In this document: one piece after another, positions 1 through 17,944 of the stretch
Layout: every line of letters begins with the position of its first letter
How positions within the stretch are numbered: position 1 is the stretch's first letter
Source: Candidatus Pampinifervens sinense
GTDB lineage: Bacteria > Aquificota > Aquificia > Aquificales > Aquificaceae
Assembly: GCA_037927135.1 (NCBI GenBank)
Contig: JAXSPP010000011.1
Coordinates: 1 to 17,944 of the forward strand
Direction of reading: 5' to 3'
Length of the DNA: 17,944 nucleotides
Notes under the pieces: model-generated
What the model was told of the DNA's origin: nothing
Databases searched by the model: none
Seen by the model: the letters and a program-made list of their open reading frames with translations, nothing else
Made by a program: the position numbers and the translations under genes

Positions 1-22
1 GGTAAGGTGGTATAATTTCCAT
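1..22 (-). CDS. 5' end of an unidentified gene running off the left edge (MEIIPPY...)
   Basis: Minus strand reads GGAGG (35-31), 8 nt, then ATG (22-20) GAA ATT ATA CCA CCT TAC. Only 7 codons are visible, so the product cannot be assigned. Confidence 0.5.
8..16 (+). promoter_or_regulatory. Extended -10 promoter motif (TGnTATAAT), antisense to the left-edge gene
   Basis: TGGTATAAT at 8-16, identical to the motif upstream of the tRNA-Glu. The -35 region lies outside the window. Confidence 0.4.
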
Positions 23-24
23 GG

Positions 25-46
25 TAAAAACCTCCGATGGTTTTTA
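25..46. repeat. Inverted repeat/hairpin overlapping the Shine-Dalgarno of the left-edge gene
   Basis: TAAAAACC (25-32) TCCGAT GGTTTTTA (39-46), an 8-bp perfect stem containing CCTCC/GGAGG at 31-35. Confidence 0.6.
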
Positions 47-68
47 GGGCTACTATTATAGTAGCCCT
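46..68. repeat. Perfect 10-bp inverted repeat (stem-loop or operator)
   Basis: AGGGCTACTA (46-55) TTA TAGTAGCCCT (59-68). There is no U-tract directly after the stem on either strand; a T5 run follows at 75-79 on the + strand. Confidence 0.85.
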
Positions 69-165
69 GCTGTCTTTTTATTGATATGGAAGGTTTAGCT
101 TAAAGGGAATTTCTCACTCGGCGTATAATTTCCTCCCTTAATAATAATATCGCCAAAAAACTGTT

Positions 166-957
166 TTATTTAATTTCTACATAAACTCCTTCCCTAATCT
201 TTATGGCTGTATGCCTTCTTCCAGTATCCTCAAGGATGGTCTCCTCTGAGGTCATCTCTTCCCGCAGTTTTTCCGCAAGGTCAAGGGCTTCTTGGGGCAC
301 ACTACCATAGCCCTCAAAGTCAAAGTCTTTTGAAAACTCCTCAATAAGCACCTCTACCACCTCTTCAGGTTTTACCTTCCTTTTTAGTTCTCTCTCCAGC
401 CAGCTTATATTGTCCCAAAGGCTTTTTCTTACCAACTCTCTTTGATTTTTATCTTTTAGAGCAAAAAGCTCTGCCATGAGGTCTGGGTCAAAGCGTATTA
501 GGATGTTTCCAACAAAGACAAAGAGCTTTCCTATATCGGCAGAACCTTGACCACTTATCTTCCTTTGACTTTCCTTTACCACAAGGTCGCTTATGGGCTT
601 GTATTCTACTTCCACACCAAGCCTTTTGTAAGCTCTGATAACCGGCTGGGATAGCTTTTTGTATGCATCTTCCACTTTAAAGGGAGCCTTGCTTTTGTGT
701 ATCAAAAGTTGATAAAATACCTGGCCTGGTGCCAAAAGCACCGCACCACCGCCTGTTTGCCTCCTTATAACAGCTATGCCAAGCTCCTTACATCTTTTCA
801 AGTCTATTATCTCCTCCGCCTTATCAAAGTAGCCAAGGCTTATGTAAGTATCTTCCGGCTCGCACAAAATTAACCCTTCATAGCCAAGCTCTGCCATAGC
901 ATGAAAGAGGGTGGTGGAGATCATGTTTGGAAGCCTTCCAAGCTTGTATATCTTCAT
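166..957 (-). CDS. Lipoate-protein ligase / lipoyltransferase family protein (BPL_LplA_LipB catalytic domain only)
   Basis: 263 aa with RRQTGGGAV and RKISGQG motifs and GNILIRFD. No C-terminal LplB-type accessory domain. Confidence 0.88.
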   Translation of the reverse strand: MKIYKLGRLPNMISTTLFHAMAELGYEGLILCEPEDTYISLGYFDKAEEIIDLKRCKELGIAVIRRQTGGGAVLLAPGQVFYQLLIHKSKAPFKVEDAYKKLSQPVIRAYKRLGVEVEYKPISDLVVKESQRKISGQGSADIGKLFVFVGNILIRFDPDLMAELFALKDKNQRELVRKSLWDNISWLERELKRKVKPEEVVEVLIEEFSKDFDFEGYGSVPQEALDLAEKLREEMTSEETILEDTGRRHTAIKIREGVYVEIK

Positions 958-966
958 CTTCCAAAG

Positions 967-976
967 ATTTTAAAAT
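967..976. promoter_or_regulatory. Palindromic bidirectional -10 element serving the ligase gene and fliA
   Basis: ATTTTAAAAT gives TAAAAT on + (971-976, 7 nt before ATG 984) and on - (972-967, 9 nt before ATG 957). The intergenic gap is 26 bp and has no SD. Confidence 0.55.
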
Positions 977-983
977 ATTTCCA

Positions 984-1670
984 ATGACAGCAGAAGAGAA
1001 GGAGCTTGTGCTCTCTTATCTGCCCTTGGTTAAAGAGATAGCCTACAGGCTCTACAGGCACTTGCCAAAGTCTGTGGATGTTAGGGACCTAATAGGCTAC
1101 GGTGTGCTTGCAGTGGTAGAAGCCCTTCCAAAGCTTGACAAAAACAAAAACCCTACGGCCTACTTGAAGCTACGCATAAAGGGAGCCATGTATGACTATC
1201 TTAGAAGCATTGACTTTGCAAGCAGGAATGTAAGGTCTAAGGAAAAGGCCATAAGGCAGGCCTTAGAAAAGCTTAGCATAGAAAAGGGAAGGGAAGTGAG
1301 CGATGAGGAATTGGCAGAGTTCCTTGGAGAGGACCCAGAAAGGTTAAAAGAGGACCTTCAAGCTATAAGCTTTTCATACCTTATGAGCCTTGAGGAGATA
1401 TTTTCTGAGAGAAGAAGCTATGAAGAGCTTTTTGAAAGCAAAGAGGAGAGCCCAGAAGAGATTGTGATAAAAAAGGACATAAGGGAAAAGCTTTTAAAAG
1501 CCATAGAAAGACTTGAAAAAAGGGAAAAGCTTGTGCTTCAGCTACTTTACTATGAGGAGCTACCCCTCAAAGAGGTAGCAAAGCTTTTGGGTGTGTCCAT
1601 GGCAAGGGTGTCTCAGATAAAGAGCTCTGCCATAGAAAAGCTCAAAAGCTATTTAGCCTCTGCTCTATAG
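984..1670 (+). CDS. fliA: RNA polymerase sigma-28 factor (FliA/WhiG family)
   Basis: Region 2 motifs DLIGYG and RIKGAMYDYLRSID; region 4 HTH LYYEELPLKEVAKLLGVSMARVSQI. Start moved from the track's TTG 927 (which overlaps the divergent gene) to ATG 984. Confidence 0.93.
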   Translation: MTAEEKELVLSYLPLVKEIAYRLYRHLPKSVDVRDLIGYGVLAVVEALPKLDKNKNPTAYLKLRIKGAMYDYLRSIDFASRNVRSKEKAIRQALEKLSIEKGREVSDEELAEFLGEDPERLKEDLQAISFSYLMSLEEIFSERRSYEELFESKEESPEEIVIKKDIREKLLKAIERLEKREKLVLQLLYYEELPLKEVAKLLGVSMARVSQIKSSAIEKLKSYLASAL

Positions 1671-1941
1671 ACTCTATGATCTTCTCATAAAGGTATCTTA
1701 TTTCGTAGGCCATGTTTATGAGCCTTTTGTTTTTTGTGGCCTCAGCCCTGCCCACCAAGGGCATGATGTTTTTCTTCAATTGGTCCTTGTATTCTTCTAG
1801 GTCGCACCTTAGCTCTTCCGCCGTTAGGTCCTCTATGGTGGCTAAATAACTTCTGTATAACATCTTGGCGGATATAAGCACATGCTCCAATTCCTTCTCA
1901 AGGTCTCCCTTGTCCAGTCCTGCCTTTGTAAAGTCTCCCAT
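1642..1941 (-). CDS. Hypothetical 99-aa helical protein
   Basis: ATG 1941 overlaps the upstream stop (TAATG coupling). Genome-typical codon usage and amphipathic helices. Its 3' end overlaps fliA by 29 nt. Confidence 0.75.
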   Translation of the reverse strand: MGDFTKAGLDKGDLEKELEHVLISAKMLYRSYLATIEDLTAEELRCDLEEYKDQLKKNIMPLVGRAEATKNKRLINMAYEIRYLYEKIIESIEQRLNSF

Positions 1942-3194
1942 TATGGCTCCACCACCACACAATGATAGTTTTTAAGATAATTCTCCCTTAGCCTTTTCAC
2001 CTCTTCAAAGCTCACAGCCCTTATCCTTTCCGGATACTCCTGGTCCATCCTCCATCCAAAGCCCATAACCTCAAAAAAGCCCAAATACCAAGCCTGCCTT
2101 GCCCTTGTCTGATGGGCCAACAGAAAATCACCTATTATCTTATTCTTGGCAAGCTCCACATCCTCTGGAGTTATCTCGGCCTTTTGCACCACCTCTATCA
2201 TATCCCTTAGGGCATCTTCCTTCTTTTCCGGCGATGTGCCAATGTAGGCCATAAGCCTTGGAGAAGAAAGGCGAGTAGGATAGGTAGAGTAGACCGCATA
2301 GGCATAGCCTTTTCTTTCCCTTAGTTCTTTAAAAAGCTTTGAGGTCATGCCATCACCTAGCACGCTGTCAAGCACCTTAAAGGCAAAGTATTCCTCCGTT
2401 CTGAAGTCTGGAGCATCAAAGGCACAAAGGACAGTGGCTTGAGATCCGGGCCTTTTGACCCTTTCCACAAGGTTTTCCACCATGGGCACACTCTTTGGCT
2501 CTACCTTGTACTCCCCCTCTGGCAAGGCTGAAAAGACTTCTTTGAGCAAAGGCAAAACCTCTTCTGATTTGAAGTCTCCCACCAGACTTACCACCACATT
2601 CCTTGACTTTAAAACCTCCTTCCATCTTTTGACAATGTCCTCCCTATTTATGGCCTTTACATCTTCTTCTTGGCCCAGTGGGCCTACCTCATAGTTGGAA
2701 CCCTTGTAGGTTATCCTCCTTAAGGTATCGCTTGCAAGCTCATGGCCCCTTTCCCTCCTTGACCTTATGGCCTGAAGCACATTCTTCTTTTCCCTCTCTA
2801 TATCCTCTTGAGAAAAGGTAGGCTCCGTCAAGAGGCTTTTTATGACCTCCAGACCCTTCTTTAGACCCTCCACCTTGGTGGAAAAACCTATCTCCACATA
2901 GTCATCGGCCGTAGAAGTGTATATATTTCCCCCATAATCTTCAAAGGCGCTGGCTATCTCATAAAAGTTGTATGTTTTTGTTCCCTTTGTGAGGAGAGTG
3001 GCCATAAGGTTTGTAAGACCCCTCTTCTCCTCTCCATAGGTGCCAGACTTTATAAAGATCACACCAGAAACTATGCCCTTGCCCTGTGTTTCTTTCAATA
3101 TAAGCTTTACGCCGTTTTGCAAGCTGTGTTCTTGCACCTTCACACCTCCAAAGGAAAGACTAAGGAGAAAAAACAGAAGTATTATATAGCTCAT
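1941..3194 (-). CDS. M16B peptidase, non-catalytic subunit, with signal peptide
   Basis: M16 fold. HxxEH is replaced by TNLMATLL, but the substrate-binding R/Y pair is kept (ELRERKGYAY). Hydrophobic N-terminus. ATGA overlap with the upstream stop. Confidence 0.9.
   Translation of the reverse strand: MSYIILLFFLLSLSFGGVKVQEHSLQNGVKLILKETQGKGIVSGVIFIKSGTYGEEKRGLTNLMATLLTKGTKTYNFYEIASAFEDYGGNIYTSTADDYVEIGFSTKVEGLKKGLEVIKSLLTEPTFSQEDIEREKKNVLQAIRSRRERGHELASDTLRRITYKGSNYEVGPLGQEEDVKAINREDIVKRWKEVLKSRNVVVSLVGDFKSEEVLPLLKEVFSALPEGEYKVEPKSVPMVENLVERVKRPGSQATVLCAFDAPDFRTEEYFAFKVLDSVLGDGMTSKLFKELRERKGYAYAVYSTYPTRLSSPRLMAYIGTSPEKKEDALRDMIEVVQKAEITPEDVELAKNKIIGDFLLAHQTRARQAWYLGFFEVMGFGWRMDQEYPERIRAVSFEEVKRLRENYLKNYHCVVVEP
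3143..3149 (-). promoter_or_regulatory. Internal Shine-Dalgarno GGAGGTG before in-frame GTG 3137
   Basis: GGAGGTG-TGAAG-GTG, at codon 20 of the non-catalytic M16 subunit. Confidence 0.55.
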
Positions 3195-4480
3195 TTTTCT
3201 GGCACCATAATAACCTCGCTGTATGGCCTGCCAAGAATATACTTCTCAAGCACCCTTAAAACATCCTCCCTTCTTACGCTTCTTATGTTGTTCTCAAAGT
3301 ATTTATAGTAGTCCAAAAGGCCCACAACGGTGAGAGAATAGCCTATATAAAAGGCATCATTTTCCACCTTTTCAAGGGCAAAAACCTCCGAGTTTATCAC
3401 CCTCTCCTTTGCCTTTTGCACCTCTTCCTCTGTAAGGTTCTCTTTTAAATCTTCCATAAGCTTAAAGGCCCTTTCCTTTACCTCCTCAAGCCTCTCCTTA
3501 TCAAGGGTGGCAGAAAGGAAAAAGACATTATCCATTGGCCTTCCAAAGTCTCCTGTGTATATGCCATACACAAGCCCCTTTTCCTTTAGTTCTCTATAGA
3601 AAAGGGAAGTTTTTCCGTTGCCCAGTATCTGGTCAAGGACCACAAGGGCATAGTATTCCTTTGTGCCTATGGCTGGCACCCTCCAGCCTATAAGCCAATA
3701 GGTCTTCTCCACCCTTGGGTCCTTTATTAGCTTGCTTCTGTTTTCCAACTGCTCTGGTTCTGGAAGTATGCTTGGCCTTTGCACGGGCCTTCCCTCTTCC
3801 TTTCCAAAGGTGCCAAGGGCCTCTTGATAGACCTCTTCAGGGTCCACATCCCCCACCACCACTATAAACATGTTCTTTGGCTGGTAGAAGTTTTTGTAGA
3901 ACTCAAGAAGCATGGATCTATTGAACTTCTGGATTGTCTCCTCGTAGCCTATTATAGGATAGCGGTATGGAGAGACCTTGTATATTAGCTTTTCAAACTC
4001 CTCCCAAAGCACGGTGGTAGGATTGTCCTTTCCACGCCTTAGCTCCTCTATAACTATGGGCTTTTCCTTCTCTATCATATCTTCAAGGAGTAAGGGCTTT
4101 TGCGTTAGCTGATAGAGAACCTCAAAGGCCTGCTTCCAATAGGGCTTGGCTATGGTAATGTGATAAAAGGTGTATTCCTTGGAAGTGCCAGCATTGATGT
4201 TTCCGCCAAGGCTTTCCACTATGTAGTCTATCTGGCCGTAGGCATACTTTTCCGAACCGTTGAAAAGCATATGTTCCAAAAAGTGCGCCATACCCTTTTG
4301 GTGATAGTCCTCGTATATGGACCCCACCTTAAACCAAACATGAAGGGCAACAGCCTGAGTATCTTCCCTTTTGTTTATCACAAGCTTGGCTCCGTTGGGA
4401 AGCTTGTAGACCCTTAGCTCTCCAGAAAGGGCAACAGCCACCATAATAAGCACCTCCAAGATTATTAAAGATAGTCTCAT
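3191..4480 (-). CDS. M16B zinc peptidase, catalytic subunit (pitrilysin family), with signal peptide
   Basis: GMAHFLEHMLF (HxxEH), NAGTSKEYTFY, and EKEKPIVIEE (third ligand region). ATG 4480 is preferred because TACAAT lies 7 nt upstream; ATG 4489 and ATG 4444 are alternatives. Confidence 0.93.
   Translation of the reverse strand: MRLSLIILEVLIMVAVALSGELRVYKLPNGAKLVINKREDTQAVALHVWFKVGSIYEDYHQKGMAHFLEHMLFNGSEKYAYGQIDYIVESLGGNINAGTSKEYTFYHITIAKPYWKQAFEVLYQLTQKPLLLEDMIEKEKPIVIEELRRGKDNPTTVLWEEFEKLIYKVSPYRYPIIGYEETIQKFNRSMLLEFYKNFYQPKNMFIVVVGDVDPEEVYQEALGTFGKEEGRPVQRPSILPEPEQLENRSKLIKDPRVEKTYWLIGWRVPAIGTKEYYALVVLDQILGNGKTSLFYRELKEKGLVYGIYTGDFGRPMDNVFFLSATLDKERLEEVKERAFKLMEDLKENLTEEEVQKAKERVINSEVFALEKVENDAFYIGYSLTVVGLLDYYKYFENNIRSVRREDVLRVLEKYILGRPYSEVIMVPEK
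4451..4457 (-). promoter_or_regulatory. Internal Shine-Dalgarno GGAGGTG before in-frame ATG 4444
   Basis: GGAGGTG-CTTATT-ATG within the signal-peptide coding region of the catalytic M16 subunit. Confidence 0.55.
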
Positions 4481-4487
4481 GGCATAC

Positions 4488-4493
4488 ATTGTA
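4488..4493 (-). promoter_or_regulatory. Putative -10 element (TACAAT) for a leaderless M16 transcript
   Basis: TACAAT-N7-ATG 4480. No convincing -35. Confidence 0.4.
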
Positions 4494-4570
4494 AAATCAC
4501 TTTTCTATTTTAAGACTTCTGCCATTTTTGAAACATCTTCATTGCCCATAAAAGAGCTTTAAATTTAATT

Positions 4571-4966
4571 TCATAACAATCCTTCCCTTTTCATAGCCTC
4601 TTCCACTTCTGGATTTCTCTTCGCCAAACTTCTTAGGACCTTTTCCATTTTATCGCTTTTTTCTTCCAATTCCTTTGTCTTTTTTACTACAGGAGATATA
4701 GCTGTTCTTATATCCCACATTACCAAGCCTATAAGTATTCCCATACCACCAAAAAGAATACCAAAGCCCCATAGCATCAAAGTCCTTAGATCGTCAATTT
4801 GTTTTTGAGTTGATATCTTTAAGTCGTCAATCTGTTTTTGCAAAAACTTTTGACCTTCTTCCAACCTTATAAGCCTGTCTCTATCTTCTTGTGTAAAAGG
4901 CACTTCCTTAGCCAAAGCAAGGTTAAGAAAACTCAAGAAGAAAAACACCAATAAAATCCTTCTCAT
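4571..4966 (-). CDS. Signal peptide + coiled-coil + single TM protein, paralogue A (131 aa)
   Basis: MRRILLVFFFLSFLNLALA signal, EVPFTQEDRDRL, two QKQIDDL repeats, TM LMLWGFGILFGGMGILIGLVMWD, C-terminal coil. The track's TTG 5002 is the -35 box, so the start is ATG 4966. Confidence 0.85.
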   Translation of the reverse strand: MRRILLVFFFLSFLNLALAKEVPFTQEDRDRLIRLEEGQKFLQKQIDDLKISTQKQIDDLRTLMLWGFGILFGGMGILIGLVMWDIRTAISPVVKKTKELEEKSDKMEKVLRSLAKRNPEVEEAMKREGLL

Positions 4967-5240
4967 AGGGTAAATTTTAAATTTCTGCACACCCTTTGTC
5001 AATTTAAAGCTTACAAAAGTCCCGCCTTCTTTAAGGCTTGCTCTATCTTTGGGTCTTCTTTAGCCAATTCCTTTAAAACCTTTTCCACCTTATCGCTTTT
5101 GTCTTCCAACTCCTTTGTCTTTTTTACTACAGGAGATATGGCTGTTCTTCTGTCCCACATTACCAGGCCTATTAAAATTCCCATACCACTAAACAAAACA
5201 CCAAAGCCCCATAGCATTAAGGTCCTTAAATTGTCAATCT
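4641..5240. repeat. Direct repeat between tandem paralogues (440-bp offset)
   Basis: 4641-4800 vs 5081-5240: 140/160 identical nt by hand count, ungapped. Confidence 0.9.
4974..5002 (-). promoter_or_regulatory. Near-consensus sigma70 promoter, leaderless mRNA
   Basis: TTGACA (5002-4997)-N17-TAAAAT (4979-4974)-N7-ATG 4966. No SD. Confidence 0.8.
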
Positions 5241-5421
5241 GTTTTTGAAGACCATCAATCTGCCTCTGCAAAGCCTTCTGCCCTTCTTCCACCTTCACCT
5301 CAAGCCTCTCAACCTTAATCTCCACATTTCTAAGCCTATCCCTATCCTCCTGAGTAAAAGGCACCTCTCTTGAAAAGACAAAGGTCAAAAGCATAAGCAT
5401 AAGCACAAAAAACCTTACCAC
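5011..5421 (-). CDS. Signal peptide + coiled-coil + single TM protein, paralogue B (136 aa)
   Basis: AGGAGG SD (5434-5429) 7 nt before GTG. Same EVPFTQEDRDRL and LMLWGFG...WD motifs as paralogue A. Confidence 0.88.
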   Translation of the reverse strand: MVRFFVLMLMLLTFVFSREVPFTQEDRDRLRNVEIKVERLEVKVEEGQKALQRQIDGLQKQIDNLRTLMLWGFGVLFSGMGILIGLVMWDRRTAISPVVKKTKELEDKSDKVEKVLKELAKEDPKIEQALKKAGLL

Positions 5422-5441
5422 TTTAAAACCTCCTAAGGCTT

Positions 5442-8400
5442 TTAATATATAACCCTCAGCTTGGCAGATGCGCCCTTTTTCTCCACCTCAATGCGCTGGC
5501 TAAACTTGTCCGCAATGTCTTCCACATGGGTTATTATGCCCACCATCCTGTTTGTGGATTGTTTTATCACTTCAAAGAACTCTCCTAAGGATTCCCTTGT
5601 CTCCCTGTCCAAAGAACCAAAGCCCTCATCTATAAAAAGGCTCTCAAGAGGTGCATTTTGAGAAAGAATATCCGCCACTGCAAAGGCTAAAGAAAGGCTC
5701 GCAAGAAAGGTCTCACCACCGCTAAGGCTGGAGACTGGCCTAATGTGGCCCGTATGGTGGTCCATCACATACAGATCTTTATCTACAATCTCAAAGGTAA
5801 ACTGACCAGATGTGAACTTAAAAAGGTAATAGCTACCCCTTTCTGCCACCCTACTAAGCATCAACTGACTTACATAATCTGGAAACCTGTTATCTTCAAA
5901 GTCCTCCCTAAGTTTTTTATAAAGGCTATACTTGAAATTTAGCTCTTGCAATTCTCTCTCAATTCCCTTCCTCTCCTCCACAAGCCTCTTTAGCTCTTCC
6001 AAAGACCTCTGAAGCTGGCCATAGGCCTCCCTATTGCTATGAATCTTCTTCTCCAATTCCGATAGCTCCCCTTCCACCCTATCTGTCCTTGGCAGGCCCT
6101 CAAGCTCCTTTAGGCCTTTCTCTAACTCTTCCCTCCTTCCTTTCCACTTCTCCTTATCCCTTTCATATTGCTCCACCTCTTGCCTCAACCTTTCTATACT
6201 CCCTCGGTCAAGCATATACTTTTCCGCCTCCTCAAGGCTTCCAAACCTCTCATATAGCTCATAAAGCCCTTTTGCCACCTCTTCCTTTTGCCTTTTAAGG
6301 TTCAAAAGACTGTTTTCTATATTTCTTATATCCGACTTTAGCCTTTCTAACTCCAACTCTATCCTTTGTCTATACTCGCTTACCTTCCGATAGTCCTCTT
6401 GTATCCGTTTTATCTTCTCTGTTAGGTACTCCACCTCCCTTTTTACCCTTTGCTCCAAAAGGTGAGAATAAGGCTCTCCAATCTGCGCCCTTATATCCTC
6501 TTCAAGCCTTTTCAACTTCTCTCCTCTTTCCTTTATCTGTTCCATAAGACCCTCCCTTTCCTTTTCTAGCTCCACCCTCCTCTTCTCCTTTTGAGACAGC
6601 TCTTCCCTTAGCTTATTTAACCTTTCCAAATACTTCCTTTCCTTATCCCTCAAGTCCTTTAAATCCTTGTAATCCCTTTCCACCTCCTTTATATACTGCT
6701 CCACCCTGCTTGGATCATCAGGTAGGCTGAAAACAAGGCTTTCCTTTTCTTCTCTTATCTGCTCTAAGCGAGACTCTTTGTGCCTCAAGCCCTCTTTTAG
6801 CCTCTCCAGTTCTATCCTTATCCTCTCCAGATCCTTCAAAACCCTTTCTTCTTTCTCTTTTAGCTCCTTTAGCTCCCTTTCCCTTTCTTGCATCAAGGCC
6901 TTTTTCTTTTCAACCTCCTCAAGCCTTTCTTTTAGCCTTGAAAGCTCAAGCTCTATACTTTGCCTGTCATGGCCTTTTAGTTCCTCTGTAAGAGTTCTTT
7001 CCTTTTCTTTTAAAAGATTTAGCTGTGCCTCAAGGCTTGCCCTCTCCCTCTCATAGTAAGACTTCTTATCCTGAAGTTCCTTCAATCTATTTAAAAGGCT
7101 TTCCAGATCCTCCTTCAAGCTTACCTCATGCACATGGCCCACCACACCACCACACACAGGACACACATCCCCCTCCTTTAAAGAAGCCCTTAGCTCCATT
7201 GCGTATATCTCAAGCCTTCTGTTTTCAAGCTCAGAAAGCTCCTCTTCCAACCTTTTTAATATCTCTTCAACATCCTTCAACCTATCTTCCAACCCCCTTA
7301 TTTCCCCTCTCAGCCCCTCAAGTTCAACAGCCCTCTTTAGCATGCCTTCCAGTTCCATCCTTCGGCTTACAAGGATCACTTCCTCCTGCAAGAAAAGCCT
7401 AAGATTTTCCAGCTCTTCCTGAAGCTCCCTTATCCTTTCCTCAAGCCCATGCCTTTCTTTATCCTTTTCTTCCAAAGCCCTTTCTTTGACCTCAAGCCCT
7501 TTTCTTTCTTCCCTTATTTCCTCTAAAACCCTTTTTTCCTCCCTCTCCAAATCTTCAAGCCTTTTTAGCTTTTCCTTTAACTCACCTATGCTTTTTATCT
7601 TCTCTTCCACACCTTTTTCTTCATAGTCTTTTATTTTCTCCTGCACCTCCTTTATAAGGCTTTCACCCCTGCCAATCCTCTCTTTGTATTCCTCCTCTTC
7701 CTTCTTTACTTTTACCAATTCTTCTTCAATATTCCTCAACCTTCCTTCAAGCACATCCCTTTCCCTTTCCATCTCCTTGTAGCTTTCTATCATCTGAAGC
7801 ACAGTGTTTCGTTTTGAAAGCTCTTCATAGTACTCTTCAAGCCTTTTGAACTCCTCTTCTATCCTTTTAAACTCTTCCTCAACTAACCTTAATTCATCCG
7901 AATATGCAATTAGATCCCTCTCCTTCCTCTGCTTTTCCCTTATATGCTCCTCCTCTTGCCTTTTTATCCTTTCATACTCCTCAATCTTTGGCTTATAAGG
8001 CAACAGCTCAATGGCAAGCTTTAACCTCTTTTTCTTCTCTTCTACTTCTTCCTCCACCTTTAATAAAGCCCCTAATCTTTCCTCAACCTCAAGCTTCTCT
8101 TTTTCCAAATCGTCCCTTCTTTTGCAAAGCTCCAGAAGCCTTTGAAGTTCCAGTTTTCTATCCTTTAACTCCTCATATTGCTTTTCAAGAACTTTTATAT
8201 CCTCTTCCAACCTTTTTATTTCACCTTCATTAGCCTGTAAAAGCTGGTTAAACCTCTCCTTTTTAACCTTTATAACTTGCTCCAAAGCCTTATATTCTTC
8301 ACCTATAAGCTTCTTTAAAGCATTAAATAGGCCAGAAAAACCTAAAAGGTAGTTTAATATTCCCCTTCTTTCTTTAGGATCTTGCGGTTTTAAAAATCTA

Positions 8401-8837
8401 TCAAACTGATTTTGTGGCAGAACTATTACCTTTGTAAAGGTCTCATAGTCAAGCCTTAGTATCTCTTTAATATAGTTGTTCAATTCAGTTTCCTTTAAAG
8501 ACAATAGCCTATCGTTTTTGTAGAACCTAAAATCAGACTCACCACTCTCACCTTTTCGCCTATACCATCTTACAATCTTGTAATAATCCCCTTTAACAGA
8601 GAACTCAAAGAGAACTCTCATAAAGGTTTCGCCCCTTGAGAGAAGATAGCTGTGAGCCTTCTCTTTGCCATAGCGTGGAGCCTTACCGTACAAGGCATAG
8701 CATATAGCATCTATAAGGCTTGATTTACCAGCACCCGTCTTTCCCTTTATTACAAAGAAGCTTAACGGAGAAAAGTCAAGAGTATGCCTACCTCTATAGA
8801 CGGTAAAGTTTTCCAGCTCAAGGCGTATTGGCCTCAT
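5442..8837 (-). CDS. sbcC: SbcC (Rad50-like SMC ATPase)
   Basis: Walker A GKTGAGKS, Q-loop LPQNQF, central CPVCG zinc hook between long coiled coils, signature LSGGE, Walker B/D-loop FIDEGFGSLD, H-loop IITH. Adjacent to sbcD. Confidence 0.95.
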   Translation of the reverse strand: MRPIRLELENFTVYRGRHTLDFSPLSFFVIKGKTGAGKSSLIDAICYALYGKAPRYGKEKAHSYLLSRGETFMRVLFEFSVKGDYYKIVRWYRRKGESGESDFRFYKNDRLLSLKETELNNYIKEILRLDYETFTKVIVLPQNQFDRFLKPQDPKERRGILNYLLGFSGLFNALKKLIGEEYKALEQVIKVKKERFNQLLQANEGEIKRLEEDIKVLEKQYEELKDRKLELQRLLELCKRRDDLEKEKLEVEERLGALLKVEEEVEEKKKRLKLAIELLPYKPKIEEYERIKRQEEEHIREKQRKERDLIAYSDELRLVEEEFKRIEEEFKRLEEYYEELSKRNTVLQMIESYKEMERERDVLEGRLRNIEEELVKVKKEEEEYKERIGRGESLIKEVQEKIKDYEEKGVEEKIKSIGELKEKLKRLEDLEREEKRVLEEIREERKGLEVKERALEEKDKERHGLEERIRELQEELENLRLFLQEEVILVSRRMELEGMLKRAVELEGLRGEIRGLEDRLKDVEEILKRLEEELSELENRRLEIYAMELRASLKEGDVCPVCGGVVGHVHEVSLKEDLESLLNRLKELQDKKSYYERERASLEAQLNLLKEKERTLTEELKGHDRQSIELELSRLKERLEEVEKKKALMQERERELKELKEKEERVLKDLERIRIELERLKEGLRHKESRLEQIREEKESLVFSLPDDPSRVEQYIKEVERDYKDLKDLRDKERKYLERLNKLREELSQKEKRRVELEKEREGLMEQIKERGEKLKRLEEDIRAQIGEPYSHLLEQRVKREVEYLTEKIKRIQEDYRKVSEYRQRIELELERLKSDIRNIENSLLNLKRQKEEVAKGLYELYERFGSLEEAEKYMLDRGSIERLRQEVEQYERDKEKWKGRREELEKGLKELEGLPRTDRVEGELSELEKKIHSNREAYGQLQRSLEELKRLVEERKGIERELQELNFKYSLYKKLREDFEDNRFPDYVSQLMLSRVAERGSYYLFKFTSGQFTFEIVDKDLYVMDHHTGHIRPVSSLSGGETFLASLSLAFAVADILSQNAPLESLFIDEGFGSLDRETRESLGEFFEVIKQSTNRMVGIITHVEDIADKFSQRIEVEKKGASAKLRVIY

Positions 8838-9969
8838 GGCTTGCTCTATCTATCAACCTTTGCAACTCTTCCTTCAGGCTCTCAGAAGGCTCACTTCTAT
8901 GCACTTCCTTATAATAGCTCACATAAAGGTCCATCAAGTTAAGGCTTCCTTCCCTCACTTCCACAGAACCAGGAGCACCAATAGGTTCTATCTCAAGCTT
9001 TGCTAGCCTTTCACCCAGAATCCTCTGTATGAGATCCTTTTTTAGGTTATAAAAGGGATCGCCCATTTTCACCTTTAGCCTTACTTTAAGAAGGACATTT
9101 TTGCCAGCATACTGCTCAAGCCTCTGTGCTATGTTATCTCCCTCTTCCAAGATTACTTCCCTTAATTCCCTCTTTAAGTCAAGCTTTATAGGTTCAACCT
9201 TTACTAAACCATCCTCAAAGACAAGGAGGTTTACAAACTTATCTATGCCCTCTTCCGAGAAATCTATCTGATATGGACTGCCCGAATAGTATACCTTTGG
9301 CACCACGCCTTCTATCCTTTGATTCCTGTGCACATGACCAAGGGCCACATAGTCAAACTCTTCAGGTATGGTATCTGCCCTAACCGATACACTTGGACTT
9401 ATACTGGAGTAGAGCTCACTGCCAGCAACCCTTGCCTTGTCTAACATAATATGGGCTAAAAGAACCTTGTAGCGCGCATCCTTTACCTTTGAAGCCAGAG
9501 CCTTCATATATAGCGCCACCTTTTCCGCATAACTCCTCTCTTTCTCCTCATCAGGATGTGTAAGAGCCCTCTCGTCTGGATAGGGCAAGCATGCCACTTT
9601 TAATTCACCGTATTCAAAGATGGCATCCTTTACATCCTTTGAAGGTCTATCAAAAACATGTATATTTGCAAGCTTTTTTAGATTTTTATATATTTTCATA
9701 AAATCATAGCTATCGTGGTTGCCTGCTATAAGAAGGGTATGTAAGCCATAGGAATTTATCTCTGTAAGGAAATCTAGGATGATCTCTTGGGATTCAAAAT
9801 CTGGATTTCTTTTATCAAAAATATCGCCAGCTATCAGAAGTACTTCTATCTTTTCATTTCTACAAATACCTTTTATTTGTTCAAGGGCATAAACAAGGTC
9901 TTCATTTCTGTTAACTTTATCATAGAGTTTTTTACCAGCGTGAAAATCAGAAACATGAAGCAACCTCAT
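8818..9969 (-). CDS. sbcD: SbcD (Mre11-like nuclease)
   Basis: Phosphoesterase motifs SDFH, AGDIFD, GNHD, LGHVH and YSGSP. Overlaps sbcC by 20 nt. Confidence 0.95.
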   Translation of the reverse strand: MRLLHVSDFHAGKKLYDKVNRNEDLVYALEQIKGICRNEKIEVLLIAGDIFDKRNPDFESQEIILDFLTEINSYGLHTLLIAGNHDSYDFMKIYKNLKKLANIHVFDRPSKDVKDAIFEYGELKVACLPYPDERALTHPDEEKERSYAEKVALYMKALASKVKDARYKVLLAHIMLDKARVAGSELYSSISPSVSVRADTIPEEFDYVALGHVHRNQRIEGVVPKVYYSGSPYQIDFSEEGIDKFVNLLVFEDGLVKVEPIKLDLKRELREVILEEGDNIAQRLEQYAGKNVLLKVRLKVKMGDPFYNLKKDLIQRILGERLAKLEIEPIGAPGSVEVREGSLNLMDLYVSYYKEVHRSEPSESLKEELQRLIDRASHEANTP

Positions 9970-10715
9970 GGCAAAACCCCAGCCCTAACAAGTATATCCT
10001 CCAGCCTTCTAAAGAAATGGCTATAACTTTCCTCTTCTTTAAGCTTCTTATAAAGCTTTTTCATCTCATCCAATACGAGCTTTACCACCTCCTCAGGACT
10101 GTTGCATATGGATAAAAGATTGAGATCCTCCTCGCTTATTGTGCCATGATATACCATCTCTGTGCGCATAAAGTCAAGCAGTTTCTTCCAATACTCGTAT
10201 CCGAAAAGCACAATAGGGAATGGTGGGCTTTTGCCCGTTTGAATTAATGTCAAGGCTTCAAAAAGTTCATCAAGGGTTCCAAAGCCACCGGGGAATATGA
10301 TGTAAGCGGTGGAATATCTAAGTAGCATTACCTTTCTTACAAAGAAGTAGTCAAAGTTTAAAGAGAGGGTTTGATATGGGTTTGGTATTTGTTCAGTGGG
10401 TATTTGGATATTCAAACCTACAGAAAGTGTGCCAGCATCCCTGCCACCTCTGTTGGCAGCTTCCATTATACCGGGTCCACCACCCGTTATTATGTGAAAT
10501 CCAAGATTACCCAGCATAAGAGCAGTCCTATAGGCCATCTTATAATAATAGTTGTCCTCTTTTAGCCTTGAGCTTCCAAAGAAGGTGATCGCAGGACCAA
10601 CGGAAGAGAGGGCATCAAAGCCTTTGACAAATTCGCTCATAATCTTTAGAACGCGCCAAGTGTCTCCCTGCTTTATCTTAAGCTCTTCTATTATGCTAAG
10701 CTCTTCACTGTTCAT
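9966..10715 (-). CDS. LOG-family nucleotide monophosphate phosphoribohydrolase (Rossmann fold)
   Basis: FGSSR, ITGGGPGIMEAANRG, FFVRKVML and PGGFGTLDELFE motifs. ATGA overlap with sbcD. Confidence 0.92.
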   Translation of the reverse strand: MNSEELSIIEELKIKQGDTWRVLKIMSEFVKGFDALSSVGPAITFFGSSRLKEDNYYYKMAYRTALMLGNLGFHIITGGGPGIMEAANRGGRDAGTLSVGLNIQIPTEQIPNPYQTLSLNFDYFFVRKVMLLRYSTAYIIFPGGFGTLDELFEALTLIQTGKSPPFPIVLFGYEYWKKLLDFMRTEMVYHGTISEEDLNLLSICNSPEEVVKLVLDEMKKLYKKLKEEESYSHFFRRLEDILVRAGVLP

Positions 10716-10950
10716 TTAAGTCCTTTACCATACCCTCCAGTTTTAAAAGCTCACCTTCTTGAGGCTTATTTATATGAGTGGCATAGCGAGGCTTTTTGTA
10801 TGCTACCTTCTTTTTAACCTTCTTTTTCACCTTCTTATTTTTGACATGAACCACTTTATCCTTTCTATGACTTTGGGCAAAGGACCCATCAATGGGCAAA
10901 GATAGACCTATTAGGCCCATTATTAAGCTTAGTATTATAAACACTCTCAT
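10705..10950 (-). CDS. Small Lys-rich secreted protein (81 aa)
   Basis: AGGAGGAG SD before ATG 10950, signal peptide ending SFA-Q, and a KNKKVKKKVKKKV tract. Overlaps the LOG start by 11 nt. Confidence 0.75.
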   Translation of the reverse strand: MRVFIILSLIMGLIGLSLPIDGSFAQSHRKDKVVHVKNKKVKKKVKKKVAYKKPRYATHINKPQEGELLKLEGMVKDLNEQ

Positions 10951-10961
10951 AGCACTCCTCC

Positions 10962-10981
10962 TTTGCCCCCAGGGAGGCAAA
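10962..10981 (-). promoter_or_regulatory. 5'-UTR stem-loop immediately before the SD
   Basis: UUUGCCUC-CCUG-GGGGCAAA (8 bp including one G-U), followed directly by GGAGGAG. Confidence 0.6.
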
Positions 10982-10984
10982 AAA

Positions 10985-11014
10985 ACTATAACCTAAGCTT
11001 TGGATTTTTGTCAA
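10985..11014 (-). promoter_or_regulatory. sigma70-type promoter for the small protein-LOG-sbcDC operon
   Basis: TTGACA (11014-11009)-N18-TATAGT (10990-10985), 8 nt downstream of the tRNA 3' end. Confidence 0.65.
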
Positions 11015-11022
11015 GGGGAAAG

Positions 11023-11098
<76 letters not shown>

Positions 11099-11103
11099 TT
11101 AAC

Positions 11104-13575
<2,472 letters not shown>

Positions 13576-13980
13576 TTAAATAAGCCCCTTTTCTCTTGCG
13601 TACTCTCCATACTTTTTATCAGTTTTTGCTATATGGTTATACAGCCAGCCCCAGCTCAAAGCCAAGGCCTGAGTAAAAGCATGGTAATCTCCACTTTCTA
13701 TAGCTGGCAGAAGCCTTTGGACCTCTTTTCTAAAAATCTCATGGATCTTTTTGTGCTCTTCTAGATGCGGGTAGCCTATACTTTCCATAAAGGCTTCTTC
13801 ATTGCTAAGATGAATTTCTACATAGCTAGTGATTGTAGTTTTGAAAAACTCAACAGCCTTAACCTTTTCCCCTTTCTTTAAAAACATGCCAACCCTATTG
13901 AGTAGGTCTATAAGAGTTTGATGCTCTTCATCCATCTGTGGAACACCAGTTTTTAGATTCTCATCAAACTCCAACAGCAT
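13576..13980 (-). CDS. Single-domain bacteriohemerythrin
   Basis: Di-iron ligands DEEH, HLSNEE, HKKIH and WLYNHIAKTD. A GGGGGTG SD favours ATG 13980 over GTG 13986. Confidence 0.93.
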   Translation of the reverse strand: MLLEFDENLKTGVPQMDEEHQTLIDLLNRVGMFLKKGEKVKAVEFFKTTITSYVEIHLSNEEAFMESIGYPHLEEHKKIHEIFRKEVQRLLPAIESGDYHAFTQALALSWGWLYNHIAKTDKKYGEYAREKGLI

Positions 13981-14056
13981 AGCCACCCCCCCAATCTTTA
14001 ATCGTAGTAAAAGTATAAATTAAGAAAGTAAAAAATTTATTCATGAGTTTATCATT

Positions 14057-14075
14057 TTATGTGAGAAAAACATAA
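14057..14075. promoter_or_regulatory. Candidate operator palindrome upstream of hemerythrin
   Basis: TTATGT-N7-ACATAA, lying between TTGACT and TAAAAT hexamers on the minus strand (15-nt spacer, suboptimal). Confidence 0.35.
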
Positions 14076-14085
14076 GTCAAATCTT

Positions 14086-14721
14086 TTACCCAAACAAGCT
14101 TCTAAGATATGGATTAAAAAGCCTCTCATGTCCTATGGTAGTCTCCTCATAATGCCCAGTTATAACAAGCACATCGTCCTCAAGCTCTGAGAATATCCTT
14201 TTCAAAGACCTCTTTAGATCCTCAAGGCTTCCGCCCGGAAGGTCCCATCTTCCCACACTCCCTTTAAAAAGAAGGTCTCCAGCTATCAGGGTCTTATCCT
14301 CCTCCGAATAAAGACAGCACAGGCCGGGTGTATGCCCAGGAGTGTGAATAACTTTAAGTTTGCTTTTTCCAAACCTTATCTCCATACCGTCTTTTAGCTC
14401 CACATCTGGCTCTGGACAGGGGAAATTGGCTCCTATTTGTCTTTCAAAGCCGGGCCAGATAGGATCTGTAAGAAGGAACTTGTCCGCGGGATGCATATAA
14501 AAGGGCACATTAAAGCGTTCTTTTAGGGTCTTTACCTGTCCCACATGGTCTATGTGGCCGTGGGTGGCCACAATGCCCACAAGTTCAAAAGGCTCAAGTT
14601 CTTTTATTATCCTTTGGGGGTCCGCTCCCGGGTCCACCACAAGGGCCTTACCACTTTCCTCATCCACCACTATGGAACAGTTTACAGAAAGAAGGCCAAC
14701 CGGTAAGACTTTTAAAAGCAT
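14086..14721 (-). CDS. MBL-fold metallo-hydrolase (glyoxalase II-like)
   Basis: VDPG, THGHIDHVG, TPGHTPG, AGDLLF, VGRWDLPGG, GH...TTIG and NPYL. TGATG overlap with nuoN. Confidence 0.92.
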   Translation of the reverse strand: MLLKVLPVGLLSVNCSIVVDEESGKALVVDPGADPQRIIKELEPFELVGIVATHGHIDHVGQVKTLKERFNVPFYMHPADKFLLTDPIWPGFERQIGANFPCPEPDVELKDGMEIRFGKSKLKVIHTPGHTPGLCCLYSEEDKTLIAGDLLFKGSVGRWDLPGGSLEDLKRSLKRIFSELEDDVLVITGHYEETTIGHERLFNPYLRSLFG

Positions 14722-16103
14722 CAGAACCTAATAAGGTCGTAGAAAAGATGGGGGAAAATACCTAGGATAAGCACAAGCAGAGCGCAGACCATAAGGGTAA
14801 GGGCCTCTCCACCGGAGACCTTGGTGGGCGGATACTTCTTTTCACCCTCCTCAAGGAACATGGAGACTATAACCCTAAGGTAGTAGCCTGCCGATATGAT
14901 ACTGGCAATCACAAAAGCAAGGGCAAGGGGGAAGAGCATGGAGTTTACAAGGCCCATAAAGAGGCCAAGTTTACCAACAAAGAGGGCCATAGGCGGAATG
15001 CCTATGAAGGCAAAGAGAAATAGGGCAAAGATGGAAGCAAGGACAGGGTGGTCTTTAAACAGTCCTCTGTAGTCAAGGATATGGTGGCTAAAGCCCTCCC
15101 TCTTTTCAAGGGAAGCCATAAGTGTGAAGCTTCCAAGGCTTGCAAAGGCATAGAGGGAAACATAAAATAGCAGAGCCTTTTGAAGGTTTGGCTGGGCTGT
15201 AGCCAGTCCTAGGAAGAAGTAGCCAGCGTGGGCTATGGTGGAGTAGGCAAGGAGCCTTTTTACAGACCTTTGAGCGTAGGCTACAAAGTTGGCATAGAAC
15301 ATGGAAAGGAGAGAAAGGAAGGCTACAAGGATGAGCCACTGTTTGAGGTGATAGAAGTAGGATAGGAGCTTTACAAGGAAGAAGTAGATGGCCACCTTTG
15401 GCACGGAGGATAAGTATCCTGTTATGGGTGTGGGGGCACCTTCGTAGGCGTCTGGTGTCCAAAAGTGGTATGGGACTGCGGAGGCCTTGAGGGCTAAGGC
15501 GGAGAGTATGAGGAACATGGCAAGCAAGAAAAGGCTGTTTTCATCCCTGTACTCTTTGAAAAAGAAGCTACCTGTGCTGGCGTAGTAAAAGGCTGAGCCA
15601 AGGGCAAGCATAGAGGTGCCCACCGCACCTATCACAAGGTATTTAAAGCCGGCTTCTTTTGAAAAGTATTCACCCTTTTGTAAGGACACTAGCACATACA
15701 TGCTTATGCTTGCAAGTTCAAGGGAGAGGAAGAGGAGGACAAGGTTGTTGGAAGAAAGGAGTATGGAGAGGCCAAGGGTGGGCAAGAGTAGAAGGTAAGA
15801 AAGTTCCGTGTATACAGAGTTCTTTTTCTCATAATAGTCCTGCATTGAGAAGATGGCCAGGCTTGTAAGCAAGTATATTACTGCCTTTCCAAGGAGGTTT
15901 AAAGAATTGACTTCAAAGAGGTCAAAGAGGGTTTTTGAGGGGTAATTTACAAAAAGCAGGCTTATCAAGGAGGCTATTGGCACAAGGGCTGATATGTAGG
16001 TAAGGGTCCTATAGTGTTTTTTGCTGGCAAAGAGGTCAAGTATGAAAAGAAGGAGTATGCCAAAGGCAAGCACAAGTTCAGGCAATAGGGCATTCCAATT
16101 CAC
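14721..16103 (-). CDS. nuoN: NADH-quinone oxidoreductase subunit N
   Basis: Polytopic membrane protein with LELASI, EAGFKY, KASAVPYHFWTPDAYEGAPTP, KRLLAYSTIAHAGY and GIPP...FVGK. Follows nuoM. GGAGG SD. Confidence 0.95.
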   Translation of the reverse strand: MNWNALLPELVLAFGILLLFILDLFASKKHYRTLTYISALVPIASLISLLFVNYPSKTLFDLFEVNSLNLLGKAVIYLLTSLAIFSMQDYYEKKNSVYTELSYLLLLPTLGLSILLSSNNLVLLFLSLELASISMYVLVSLQKGEYFSKEAGFKYLVIGAVGTSMLALGSAFYYASTGSFFFKEYRDENSLFLLAMFLILSALALKASAVPYHFWTPDAYEGAPTPITGYLSSVPKVAIYFFLVKLLSYFYHLKQWLILVAFLSLLSMFYANFVAYAQRSVKRLLAYSTIAHAGYFFLGLATAQPNLQKALLFYVSLYAFASLGSFTLMASLEKREGFSHHILDYRGLFKDHPVLASIFALFLFAFIGIPPMALFVGKLGLFMGLVNSMLFPLALAFVIASIISAGYYLRVIVSMFLEEGEKKYPPTKVSGGEALTLMVCALLVLILGIFPHLFYDLIRF

Positions 16104-16106
16104 CTT

Positions 16107-17582: not shown

Positions 17583-17585
17583 GCT

Positions 17586-17944
17586 CTACCTCCAAAAGAT
17601 TGTTAGGAATAAAAGGGTCAAAAAGCCAACAGAAAGGAAGAGTATATACAGGTTAAGCTTGCCTGCCTGTAAGGCCTTCAAAAGACCACCCAAGGCACGC
17701 ACGCCCACATAAGAAGAGTTTACCAAACCATCTATAAGCTGTCTTTCCGCTGTGGCATACAGCACCCTTGAGTAGAAAAGATAGCCGTAAGCCAAAACCT
17801 TATGGTAAAGCCTTTCAGTGAAGAACTGTTCTTTTAGTGTTGTGTGCAAGGGCTTTAGGGCCTCATAGGCCCTCTCTGGGTCTATCAAACCCTTCACATA
17901 CACCACATAGGCTATGGCTATGCCAACAAGCCCTATGGCCACTG
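17586..17944 (-). CDS. nuoL: NADH-quinone oxidoreductase subunit L, 3' portion (partial)
   Basis: C-terminal transverse-helix region ERQLIDGLVN...LQAGKLNLY plus a final TM helix, directly upstream of nuoM. The frame is open to the window edge. Confidence 0.88.
   Translation of the reverse strand, partial: VAIGLVGIAIAYVVYVKGLIDPERAYEALKPLHTTLKEQFFTERLYHKVLAYGYLFYSRVLYATAERQLIDGLVNSSYVGVRALGGLLKALQAGKLNLYILFLSVGFLTLLFLTIFWR

Follow-up and report, generated by a model that had tools for sequence, protein, structure and literature searches.

Embedded Shine-Dalgarno sequences and in-frame starts within the signal-peptide-like extensions of both genes of an M16B peptidase pair in Aquificales

Candidatus Pampinifervens sinense (Aquificota; Aquificales; Aquificaceae) carries two adjacent genes for peptidases of the M16B type on the minus strand of contig JAXSPP010000011.1 (GenBank assembly GCA_037927135.1). 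The contig was analyzed from position 1 to 17,944, and this whole stretch of 17,944 nucleotides is termed the window. The genes are referred to as A (catalytic subunit) and B (non-catalytic subunit). Both begin with a hydrophobic stretch that resembles a signal peptide, and within that stretch both hold a perfect Shine-Dalgarno (SD) sequence, GGAGGTG, followed by an in-frame start codon. Comparison of orthologues indicates that the SD and this start are under selection at the nucleotide level in both genes. With modest confidence, we favor the view that each gene gives rise to an exported and a cytoplasmic isoform, so that a heterodimer could form in either compartment. In the following, g-numbers denote genera, f-numbers families and L-numbers loci of the orthologue set; G000 is the genome of the window (1.55 Mb in 12 contigs), the window itself being contig C11.

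A catalytic and a non-catalytic subunit

The open frames of the pair, as called, run over 3191..4489 (A) and 1941..3194 (B) of the minus strand, to which all coordinates of the pair refer. Gene A in its long form (3191..4480, from ATG 4480 to the stop TGA at 3191-3193) encodes 429 amino acids with Pfam matches to Peptidase_M16 (PF00675, 7.9e-31) and M16_C (PF05193, 6.8e-41). The long form of gene B (1941..3194) encodes 417 amino acids and matches the same two families at 3.1e-14 and 2.5e-32; all four matches lie above the curated cut-offs. The zinc-binding motif HxxEH is present as HFLEH in residues 66-70 of A (4271..4285), and a motif search of both proteins found none in B. The nearest solved chains of A are all M16B peptidases (3hdi, 5.3e-45; 4nnz, 4e-42; 3amj_C, 7.4e-40), and those of B are 3hdi (1.4e-32) and 3amj_B (3e-23), the latter being the "inactive subunit" of a Sphingomonas heterodimer whose active subunit is likewise among the solved relatives. 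As HxxEH occurs in A only, both proteins consist of M16 and M16_C domains, and the best solved relatives are M16B enzymes, A and B represent a catalytic/non-catalytic M16B pair. A preliminary description of the window had already taken them for such partners, and the Pfam and structure matches bear this out. Adjacency in most genera, the pairing of an active with an inactive chain, and a fused frame in one genus (g4, see below) suggest that A and B form a heterodimer.

Two candidate starts in each gene

The conserved long start of A is ATG 4480-4478, and a -10-like hexamer, TACAAT (4488..4493), ends 7 nt before it. The first ATG of the open frame lies further upstream, within this hexamer (4487..4489), and would add three residues (MYA-MRL...). 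It is replaced by TAA in a 99%-identical relative (L003), for which reason 4480 is regarded as the conserved long start and 4489 probably is not one. Translation from ATG 4480 yields MRLSLIILEVLIMVAVALSGELRVYKLPNG. Residues 1-20 of this product (MRLSLIILEVLIMVAVALSG, 4421..4480) constitute a signal-peptide-like extension by their coding and hydrophobic signature, and the matches to the solved M16B chains do not reach into the extension. Inside it, the codons Leu-Glu-Val spell GGAGGTG (4451..4457), followed by 6 nt (CTTATT) and by ATG 4444 (4442..4444), an arrangement that may also be written GGAGG-N8-ATG. This internal start lies 12 codons downstream of ATG 4480 and opens a short form of 417 amino acids. 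Glu-9 of the long form is encoded by the SD itself, which places an acidic residue in the hydrophobic core (h-region) of the extension, as had been pointed out before.

The long start of B, ATG 3194-3192, overlaps the stop codon of A (TGA 3193-3191) in the sequence ATGA (3191..3194), an overlap with the look of translational coupling that is likewise present in L004 and L013. Translation from this start yields MSYIILLFFLLSLSFGGVK-V-QEHSLQNG. Residues 1-17 (MSYIILLFFLLSLSFGG, 3144..3194) form an extension that is signal-peptide-like as judged from the open frame and from hydropathy across loci. Near its end the codons Gly-Gly-Val spell the same heptamer GGAGGTG (3143..3149), followed by 5 nt (TGAAG) and GTG 3137 (3135..3137), or GGAGG-N7-GTG. 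This GTG is in frame, 19 codons after ATG 3194, and opens a short form of 398 amino acids. All motif positions of the preliminary description, namely TACAAT-N7-ATG 4480 and GGAGGTG-N6-ATG 4444 in A and the ATGA-coupled ATG 3194 and GGAGGTG-N5-GTG 3137 in B, were recovered on the minus strand.

The tail of the 16S rRNA of G000 reads GGATCACCTCCTTT, and GGAGGTG is therefore a perfect complement of 7 bases. Duplex energies against this tail amount to -13.0 (A) and -13.2 (B) for the internal starts, versus -2.0 (A) and -5.2 (B) for the long starts. An energy of -13 is reached by 54 of the 13,292 in-frame ATG, GTG and TTG codons situated deep inside the long open frames of G000 (0.41%), and GGAGG has a frequency of about 2 per kb on each strand. 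Given 54 such codons in the genome, one such site in one gene is unremarkable. Two such sites in adjacent partner genes, each within a hydrophobic extension, are unusual.

Conservation in orthologues

Both genes are present in all 61 genomes of the family sample, and the start regions could be read at 30 loci for A and 29 loci for B. For a ranking of all 6-mers, the sequences were de-duplicated to 23 per gene, with no pair exceeding 93% nucleotide identity. No other 6-mer, those in the codons of the catalytic motif included, is as well conserved over the full length of either gene as GGAGGT (rank 1 of 1,396 in A and rank 1 of 1,330 in B). The preliminary description had called the double occurrence unlikely to be chance; the conservation of SD and start goes far beyond chance.

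In gene A, the codons read xTG GAG GTx at 29 of 30 loci, the lone exception being CTG GGG GTT. Wherever Glu is present it is encoded by GAG (29/29), and this column ranks first among the 18 with conserved Glu; the Leu codon before it is TTG or CTG at all 30 loci. The internal ATG occupies the same column, 2-3 codons after the SD codons, at 28 loci; at the other 2 a GTG follows one codon later. The spacer after GGAGG measures 5 or 8 nt across loci in A and 7 nt in B. In gene B, the Gly-Gly pair is written GGA GGT at 27 of 29 loci (exceptions: GGA GGA and GGG GGT). Taken singly, GGA and GGT are each found at 28 of 29 loci and occupy ranks 1-2 of 27 conserved Gly columns, the median share of the top codon being 0.45. 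The internal start of B stands two codons after Gly-Gly at all 29 loci, as GTG (20), TTG (8) or ATG (1), with no other Val or Leu codon. The columns used for these ranks were drawn from the same alignments, and hence from the same tree, as the SD columns.

The SD letters also outlast changes of the encoded residues. In A, Leu-Glu-Val is replaced by Leu-Gly-Val in g5, g6 and g10, and the resulting GGGGGT still permits G-U pairing; in B, FGG is replaced by FGEE (GGGGAGGAA) in one genome of family f2. Comparison of synonymous positions in orthologues had been suggested as a check, and GGAGGTG with its start proves to be kept more strongly than any other nucleotides of either gene. Retention of the amino acids with loss of the SD nucleotides had been named as the outcome that would speak to the contrary; what is seen is the opposite, letters being kept while residues change.

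Coding nature of the extensions

Between the long and the internal start, T makes up 78% (A) and 58% (B) of codon position 2, compared with 30-45% at the two other positions. Every locus has an open gene frame (30/30 in A, 29/29 in B), and the remaining frames are open at 13 and 27 loci in A and at 2 and 7 loci in B. Mean hydropathy of the A extension is 2.33 in the gene frame versus -0.51 and 0.51 in the other frames, and that of the B extension is 1.66 in the gene frame with values near zero in the others. Extension length varies by whole codons (11-16 in A, 18-21 in B), and hydrophobic residues are replaced by hydrophobic ones. A hydrophobic segment is kept at all 30 and 29 loci, the best 11-residue window of the h-region reaching 3.08 (A) and 2.91 (B), and in A a Lys or Arg is found within residues 2-6 at 24 of 30 loci. 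Because of the three-nucleotide periodicity, the open gene frame and the frame-specific hydropathy, the upstream stretches are unlike leader RNA. Judged by these signatures, the extensions are coding.

The long starts

In G000, a TATAAT-like hexamer is found 6-9 nt before the most upstream in-frame start of 218 of 1,079 conserved open reading frames, compared with about 10 per offset elsewhere. From this peak, leaderless-looking genes are common in the genome; an in silico estimate for two Aquificae genomes, as given in the excerpted text of its source, is 20.7-32.4% (PMC3160421). The arrangement TACAAT-N7-ATG 4480, which had been described as leaderless, fits this peak as well as the SD energy of -2.0. 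Across loci, the long start of A is preceded at 5-10 nt by the end of a hexamer that matches TATAAT in at least 5/6 letters in 15 of 30 cases (8/8 in g11, 6/7 in g8, and the window). In other genera a purine-rich run precedes this start instead, with an energy of -13.3 in L030, for example. A consensus promoter scan of the window returned 4 promoter-like sites versus 3.1 expected, and did not list TACAAT, as no good -35 match accompanies it. In none of 217 leaderless-looking genes of G000 do codons 9-31 contain an internal start whose SD reaches -12; gene A stands outside this set, having been classed by ATG 4489. Folds of both start regions were no better than those of shuffled sequences (z -0.11 and -0.10), and an Rfam search at E<=1 gave a single sub-threshold chance match inside gene A (19.8 bits versus a gathering score of 71.4).

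Some further signals surround the start of B. One of the four promoter-like sites, TTGGCA-16-TATTAT (3234-3207), ends 12 nt before ATG 3194. In the last codons of A (3206-3217, minus strand; SEVIMVPEK and stop), GAGG-N5-ATG opens a frame of 5 codons that ends at the TGA overlapping ATG 3194; this GAGG varies between genera, being GAA at several loci. In L022 (g11), a second GGAGGT followed by TTG is situated five codons past the conserved internal start of B (-13.3), giving two SD-led candidates in a row.

Distribution across genera and families

Among all loci of the family that have an extension, an internal start with a duplex energy of -9 or stronger is found in 35 of 41 (A) and 34 of 35 (B). 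Of the 11 genera with readings for both genes, 10 have A and B in matching states and g6 does not; the number of independent events behind this concordance is small.

Two genera depart from the common layout. In g12 (L035-L042), both genes are without extension and unlinked, about 400 kb apart in two complete genomes, and A has a single start, no more than 2 codons from where the other genera have their internal start. The short form is hence viable. In g4 (L032-L034), a continuous open frame of 834-842 codons, uninterrupted by a stop, spans A and B and has just one N-terminal extension; A has no internal SD there, and the hydrophobic extension of B is deleted. An ATG within the C-terminal EV(L)MVP motif of A in g4 is in frame with B and is preceded by an SD of -12.6. 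This fusion may represent a single-chain M16B enzyme, with or without a separately started B.

The layout is also met with in the sister family f2, with 43% identity and with A and B unlinked. A of f2 has a textbook signal (MKK-hydrophobic-AxA) and an internal ATG at 13/13 loci. The G-rich words before this ATG are encoded by varying residues (VG, VV, WS, WG), and its energy is -8 or stronger at 10 of 13 loci, versus a background of 10.5%. The extension of B in f2 ends in (F/Y/L)GG or FGEE, followed by GTG or TTG at the same place with energies from -10.0 to -15.4 in 5/5 genomes. In family f3 (7 loci) there is no extension.

Genome-wide scan and further candidate genes

G000 holds 879 GGAGG-led in-frame starts with at least 80 codons downstream, and 364 of these have an upstream in-frame start 8-30 codons before. 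A hydropathy window of at least 2.5 is reached in 9 of the 364 extensions, among which A ranks 3rd and B 6th. In a comparison of 1,940 pairs of open reading frames between G000 and G002 (the whole genome of a relative from a different genus), 7 pairs combine a hydrophobic extension with an SD-led start at corresponding positions of the two genomes. A and B account for two of these; in the remaining five, hydrophobic sequence flanks the start on either side and by eye resembles inner transmembrane segments of membrane proteins. The idea that the layout is a genome-wide habit was accordingly rejected, the two-genome scan having left only the two M16 genes among soluble proteins.

A gene of the PEBP family (Pfam PBP, 3.3e-47; G000 C4:90927-91460, minus strand; L082:128-661) likewise has a hydrophobic extension, GGAGG, 7 nt and ATG. 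GGAGG-N7-ATG after the extension is kept in 15/15 de-duplicated family loci of several genera, a count that excludes L091, L096, L100, L101 and L103 (at least 60% identity, without extension or SD) and all loci below 60% identity. In G000, its GGAGG stands in a different codon phase (GGG AGG rather than GGA GGN), and the relatives without extension L096 and L100 start exactly at the embedded Met. The PEBP gene may point to a more general way for thermophiles with small genomes to serve two compartments with one gene.

A PhnD-like phosphonate-binding protein (G000 C2:45810-46469, plus strand; L083:211-870) looks leaderless at its start and has a signal peptide with AAGGAGGT-N4-GTG at its end. 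It was rejected as a further case, SD and GTG being present at 1 of 11 family loci; for lack of conservation it is regarded as a chance case and serves as a negative control.

Dual localization and rival explanations

Initiation at the upstream start, which is without SD in both genes (with a -10 box in A at the position seen in leaderless genes, and ATGA coupling in B), would give rise to a Sec-type precursor for export. From the second start, which lies 12 codons further on in A and 19 in B and is led by an SD inside the signal codons, a product without a working signal peptide would arise and remain in the cytoplasm. Because both subunits have this device, the catalytic/non-catalytic heterodimer could form on either side of the inner membrane. 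The same nucleotides would be subject to two constraints, a hydrophobic export signal on the one hand, and a perfect SD with a bypass start on the other. This may be seen as a trade-off, in which the strongest SD would cost A a Glu in the h-region, and lineages with Gly keep a G-U-paired SD.

The preliminary description had proposed just this, an exported heterodimer from the SD-less starts and a cytoplasmic one from the SD-led starts. Its central part, two functional starts per gene, is favored by the conservation of SD and start, by the coding extensions and by the concordance of A and B. The remainder we infer from sequence: use of both starts in vivo, export and cleavage of the long forms, a cytoplasmic function and heterodimer of the short forms, and a ratio set by leaderless or coupled versus SD-led initiation. 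Going further, initiation mode may be what divides one peptide-degrading M16B "peptidasome" of Aquificales between periplasm and cytoplasm, SD-independent initiation leading to the exported form and the embedded SD to the cytoplasmic form, with both subunits kept in step over two families even where they are unlinked. We offer this wider model tentatively, as possible rather than probable.

Several observations weigh against dual localization. The orthologue loci are related, and their counts overstate the number of independent events. The extension is kept without internal SD in A of g4 and g9 and in B of g6, and the internal SD of A is weak in g10 (-6.9 and -7.5); the device is dispensable, as these genera lack or weaken the SD and retain the extension. 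A Glu inside the h-region of A would weaken a Sec signal. In B, Lys or Arg occurs within residues 2-6 at only 10 of 29 loci, and B of the window has none. The putative cleavage sites (ALS-G/ALA-Q in A, SFG-G in B) were read by eye. The 9 hydrophobic cases among 364 are about the chance number by a rough hand estimate from motif frequencies; single-genome counts therefore prove nothing, and enrichment rests on conservation. Finally, three raw hot-spring metatranscriptome runs, of which about 3-5% each was sampled, had 0 reads on 2900-4800, and one RNA run of assembled contigs had 3 pieces on the gene bodies, with neither start region covered.

An unlikely alternative, though one deserving discussion, is that only the long exported forms matter, the embedded SD being an early-elongation pause that aids targeting, a ribosome standby site or a slowly decaying relic. 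The loss of the SD from retained extensions in g4 and g9 (A) and in g6 (B) agrees with this, as does the fact that a signal peptide would naturally end in Gly-Gly or other small residues; moreover, the internal start of A, being near the sole start of g12, may be the ancestral one. However, neither a pause nor a standby site needs a start codon, and yet a start codon is kept at 30/30 loci in A (2 shifted by one codon) and 29/29 loci in B, with NTG only. A relic would not be expected to be the top-conserved 6-mer of both genes across two families, a pause would come after only about 10-17 residues have been made, and the PEBP relatives without extension start exactly at the embedded Met. The preliminary description had itself listed relic and pause as alternatives; the rank-1 conservation of the SD and the kept start codons argue against either as the sole explanation.

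It appears less likely still that only the SD-led short forms matter. The enzyme would then be cytoplasmic, the upstream stretch would be a leader or spacer that is rarely or never translated, and the "signal peptides" would be an illusion of annotation. The weak SD energies of the long starts (-2.0 and -5.2), Glu in mid h-region of A, a basic n-region missing from B at 19 of 29 loci, and the lack of any extension in g12 and f3 are all compatible with such a view. Public gene calls for A are also divided: in its 90% cluster, 6 of the 15 listed members are given as 417 amino acids and 9 as 429, and in the record of the window A is short and B long. The +2 frame of the A extension, too, is open at 27 of 30 loci. 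On the other hand, T periodicity at codon position 2 (78% and 58% versus 30-45%), the gene frame that is open at every locus (versus 2 and 7 for the other frames of B), high hydropathy in the gene frame only, and length changes by whole codons with hydrophobic-for-hydrophobic replacement are features of translated sequence. The start codon of A is followed by Lys or Arg at 24 of 30 loci, the extensions of f2 are textbook MKK-hydrophobic-AxA signals, and the -10-like box stands at a distance that suits the long start.

That SD-like words and start codons came together by chance in two stretches containing G seems very improbable, for despite the frequency of GGAGG (about 2 per kb per strand), the 9 hydrophobic cases among the 364 extended GGAGG-led starts and the unconserved PhnD-like case, an SD this strong is found at 0.41% of internal NTG codons, is conserved at rank 1 in both genes, and persists as a layout into a second family with unlinked genes.

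Relation to known systems

Dual targeting by alternative in-frame AUG codons is familiar in eukaryotes, where one isoform has a mitochondrial or endoplasmic reticulum presequence and the other is cytosolic, C3 being an example. The M16B pair resembles it in that one gene would have two N-termini, the shorter without targeting peptide; it differs in mechanism, since leaky scanning is replaced here by a competition that would take place between SD-led and SD-independent initiation. Compartment-differing N-terminal proteoforms of bacteria amount, to our knowledge, to a handful of cases in E. coli and Salmonella, most of them without evidence of selection.

In the excerpted text of a preprint on retapamulin ribosome profiling (bioRxiv 10.1101/520783), an internal start that strips the signal sequence is documented for E. 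coli speA, with synonymous-site conservation as support, and the same is proposed for bamA, ivy and yghG. Signal-stripping internal starts are also discussed in a 2026 review of N-terminal proteoforms, as far as its excerpt extends (PMC13515050). The M16B genes are like these cases, as excerpted, in having an in-frame start shortly downstream, with a shorter product whose export signal is missing in whole or in part and which is expected in the cytoplasm. Unlike them, the device occurs here in both subunits of one putative heterodimer, with states of A and B that are concordant across genera even where unlinked; the upstream starts are without SD and the perfect SD is at the downstream start; and the case is known from sequence. 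A signal-bypassing internal start is an already known type, and unusual here are its occurrence in a pair of subunits, its deep conservation and the opposition of SD-less to SD-led starts.

As to the enzymes, A and B share with the prokaryotic M16B peptidases of Sphingomonas (the heterodimer SPH2681/2682, 3amj), Bacillus halodurans (BHP, 3hdi) and Thermus (TTHA1264/1265, 3eoq) an architecture of M16 and M16_C domains, a size of about 45 kDa, and the combination of one HxxEH-bearing subunit with an inactive one. A 2025 review of M16 peptidases, in its excerpted text, distinguishes cytoplasmic-type and periplasmic (FusC, PqqL) prokaryotic members and describes the physiological substrates of prokaryotic M16B enzymes as poorly defined (PMC12731061); two-start genes are not mentioned in that excerpt. 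A literature search, covering sources other than subscription journals and supplementary files, found no report of two-start M16 genes. The fused frame of g4 with its one N-terminal extension resembles, as a likeness only, the single-chain periplasmic M16B enzymes PqqL and FusC, whereas A and B of the window are separate, each with its own extension.

With an embedded SD that surpasses every other stretch of both partner genes in conservation across two families, the pair provides an unusually clean and testable case in which subunits must be co-partitioned, and in which leaderless or coupled initiation is set against SD-led initiation on the same message. As public start calls are inconsistent, predictions of localization for the M16B pair depend on an arbitrary choice of start. 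If the dual location is true, the search for substrates would be narrowed, e.g. to the clearing of peptides on either side of the membrane. If the split by initiation mode is true, a shift in the balance of leaderless and SD-led initiation, with temperature or growth state, would re-partition the enzyme.

Neighboring genes

Downstream of B, at 1642-1943 of the minus strand, the stop codon of B (TAA, 1943-1941) overlaps an ATG (1941-1939) that is preceded by GGTGGAG. The operon probably continues with the frame of about 100 amino acids that follows, as a third, coupled gene; the product of this frame has no Pfam match (tested as the 106-amino-acid open reading frame from TTG 1962). Upstream of the pair, the stretch 4571-9969 of the minus strand holds two small open reading frames of 143 and 136 amino acids without clear Pfam family, and an SbcC/Rad50-like ATPase of 1,131 amino acids (AAA_23, SbcC_Walker_B).

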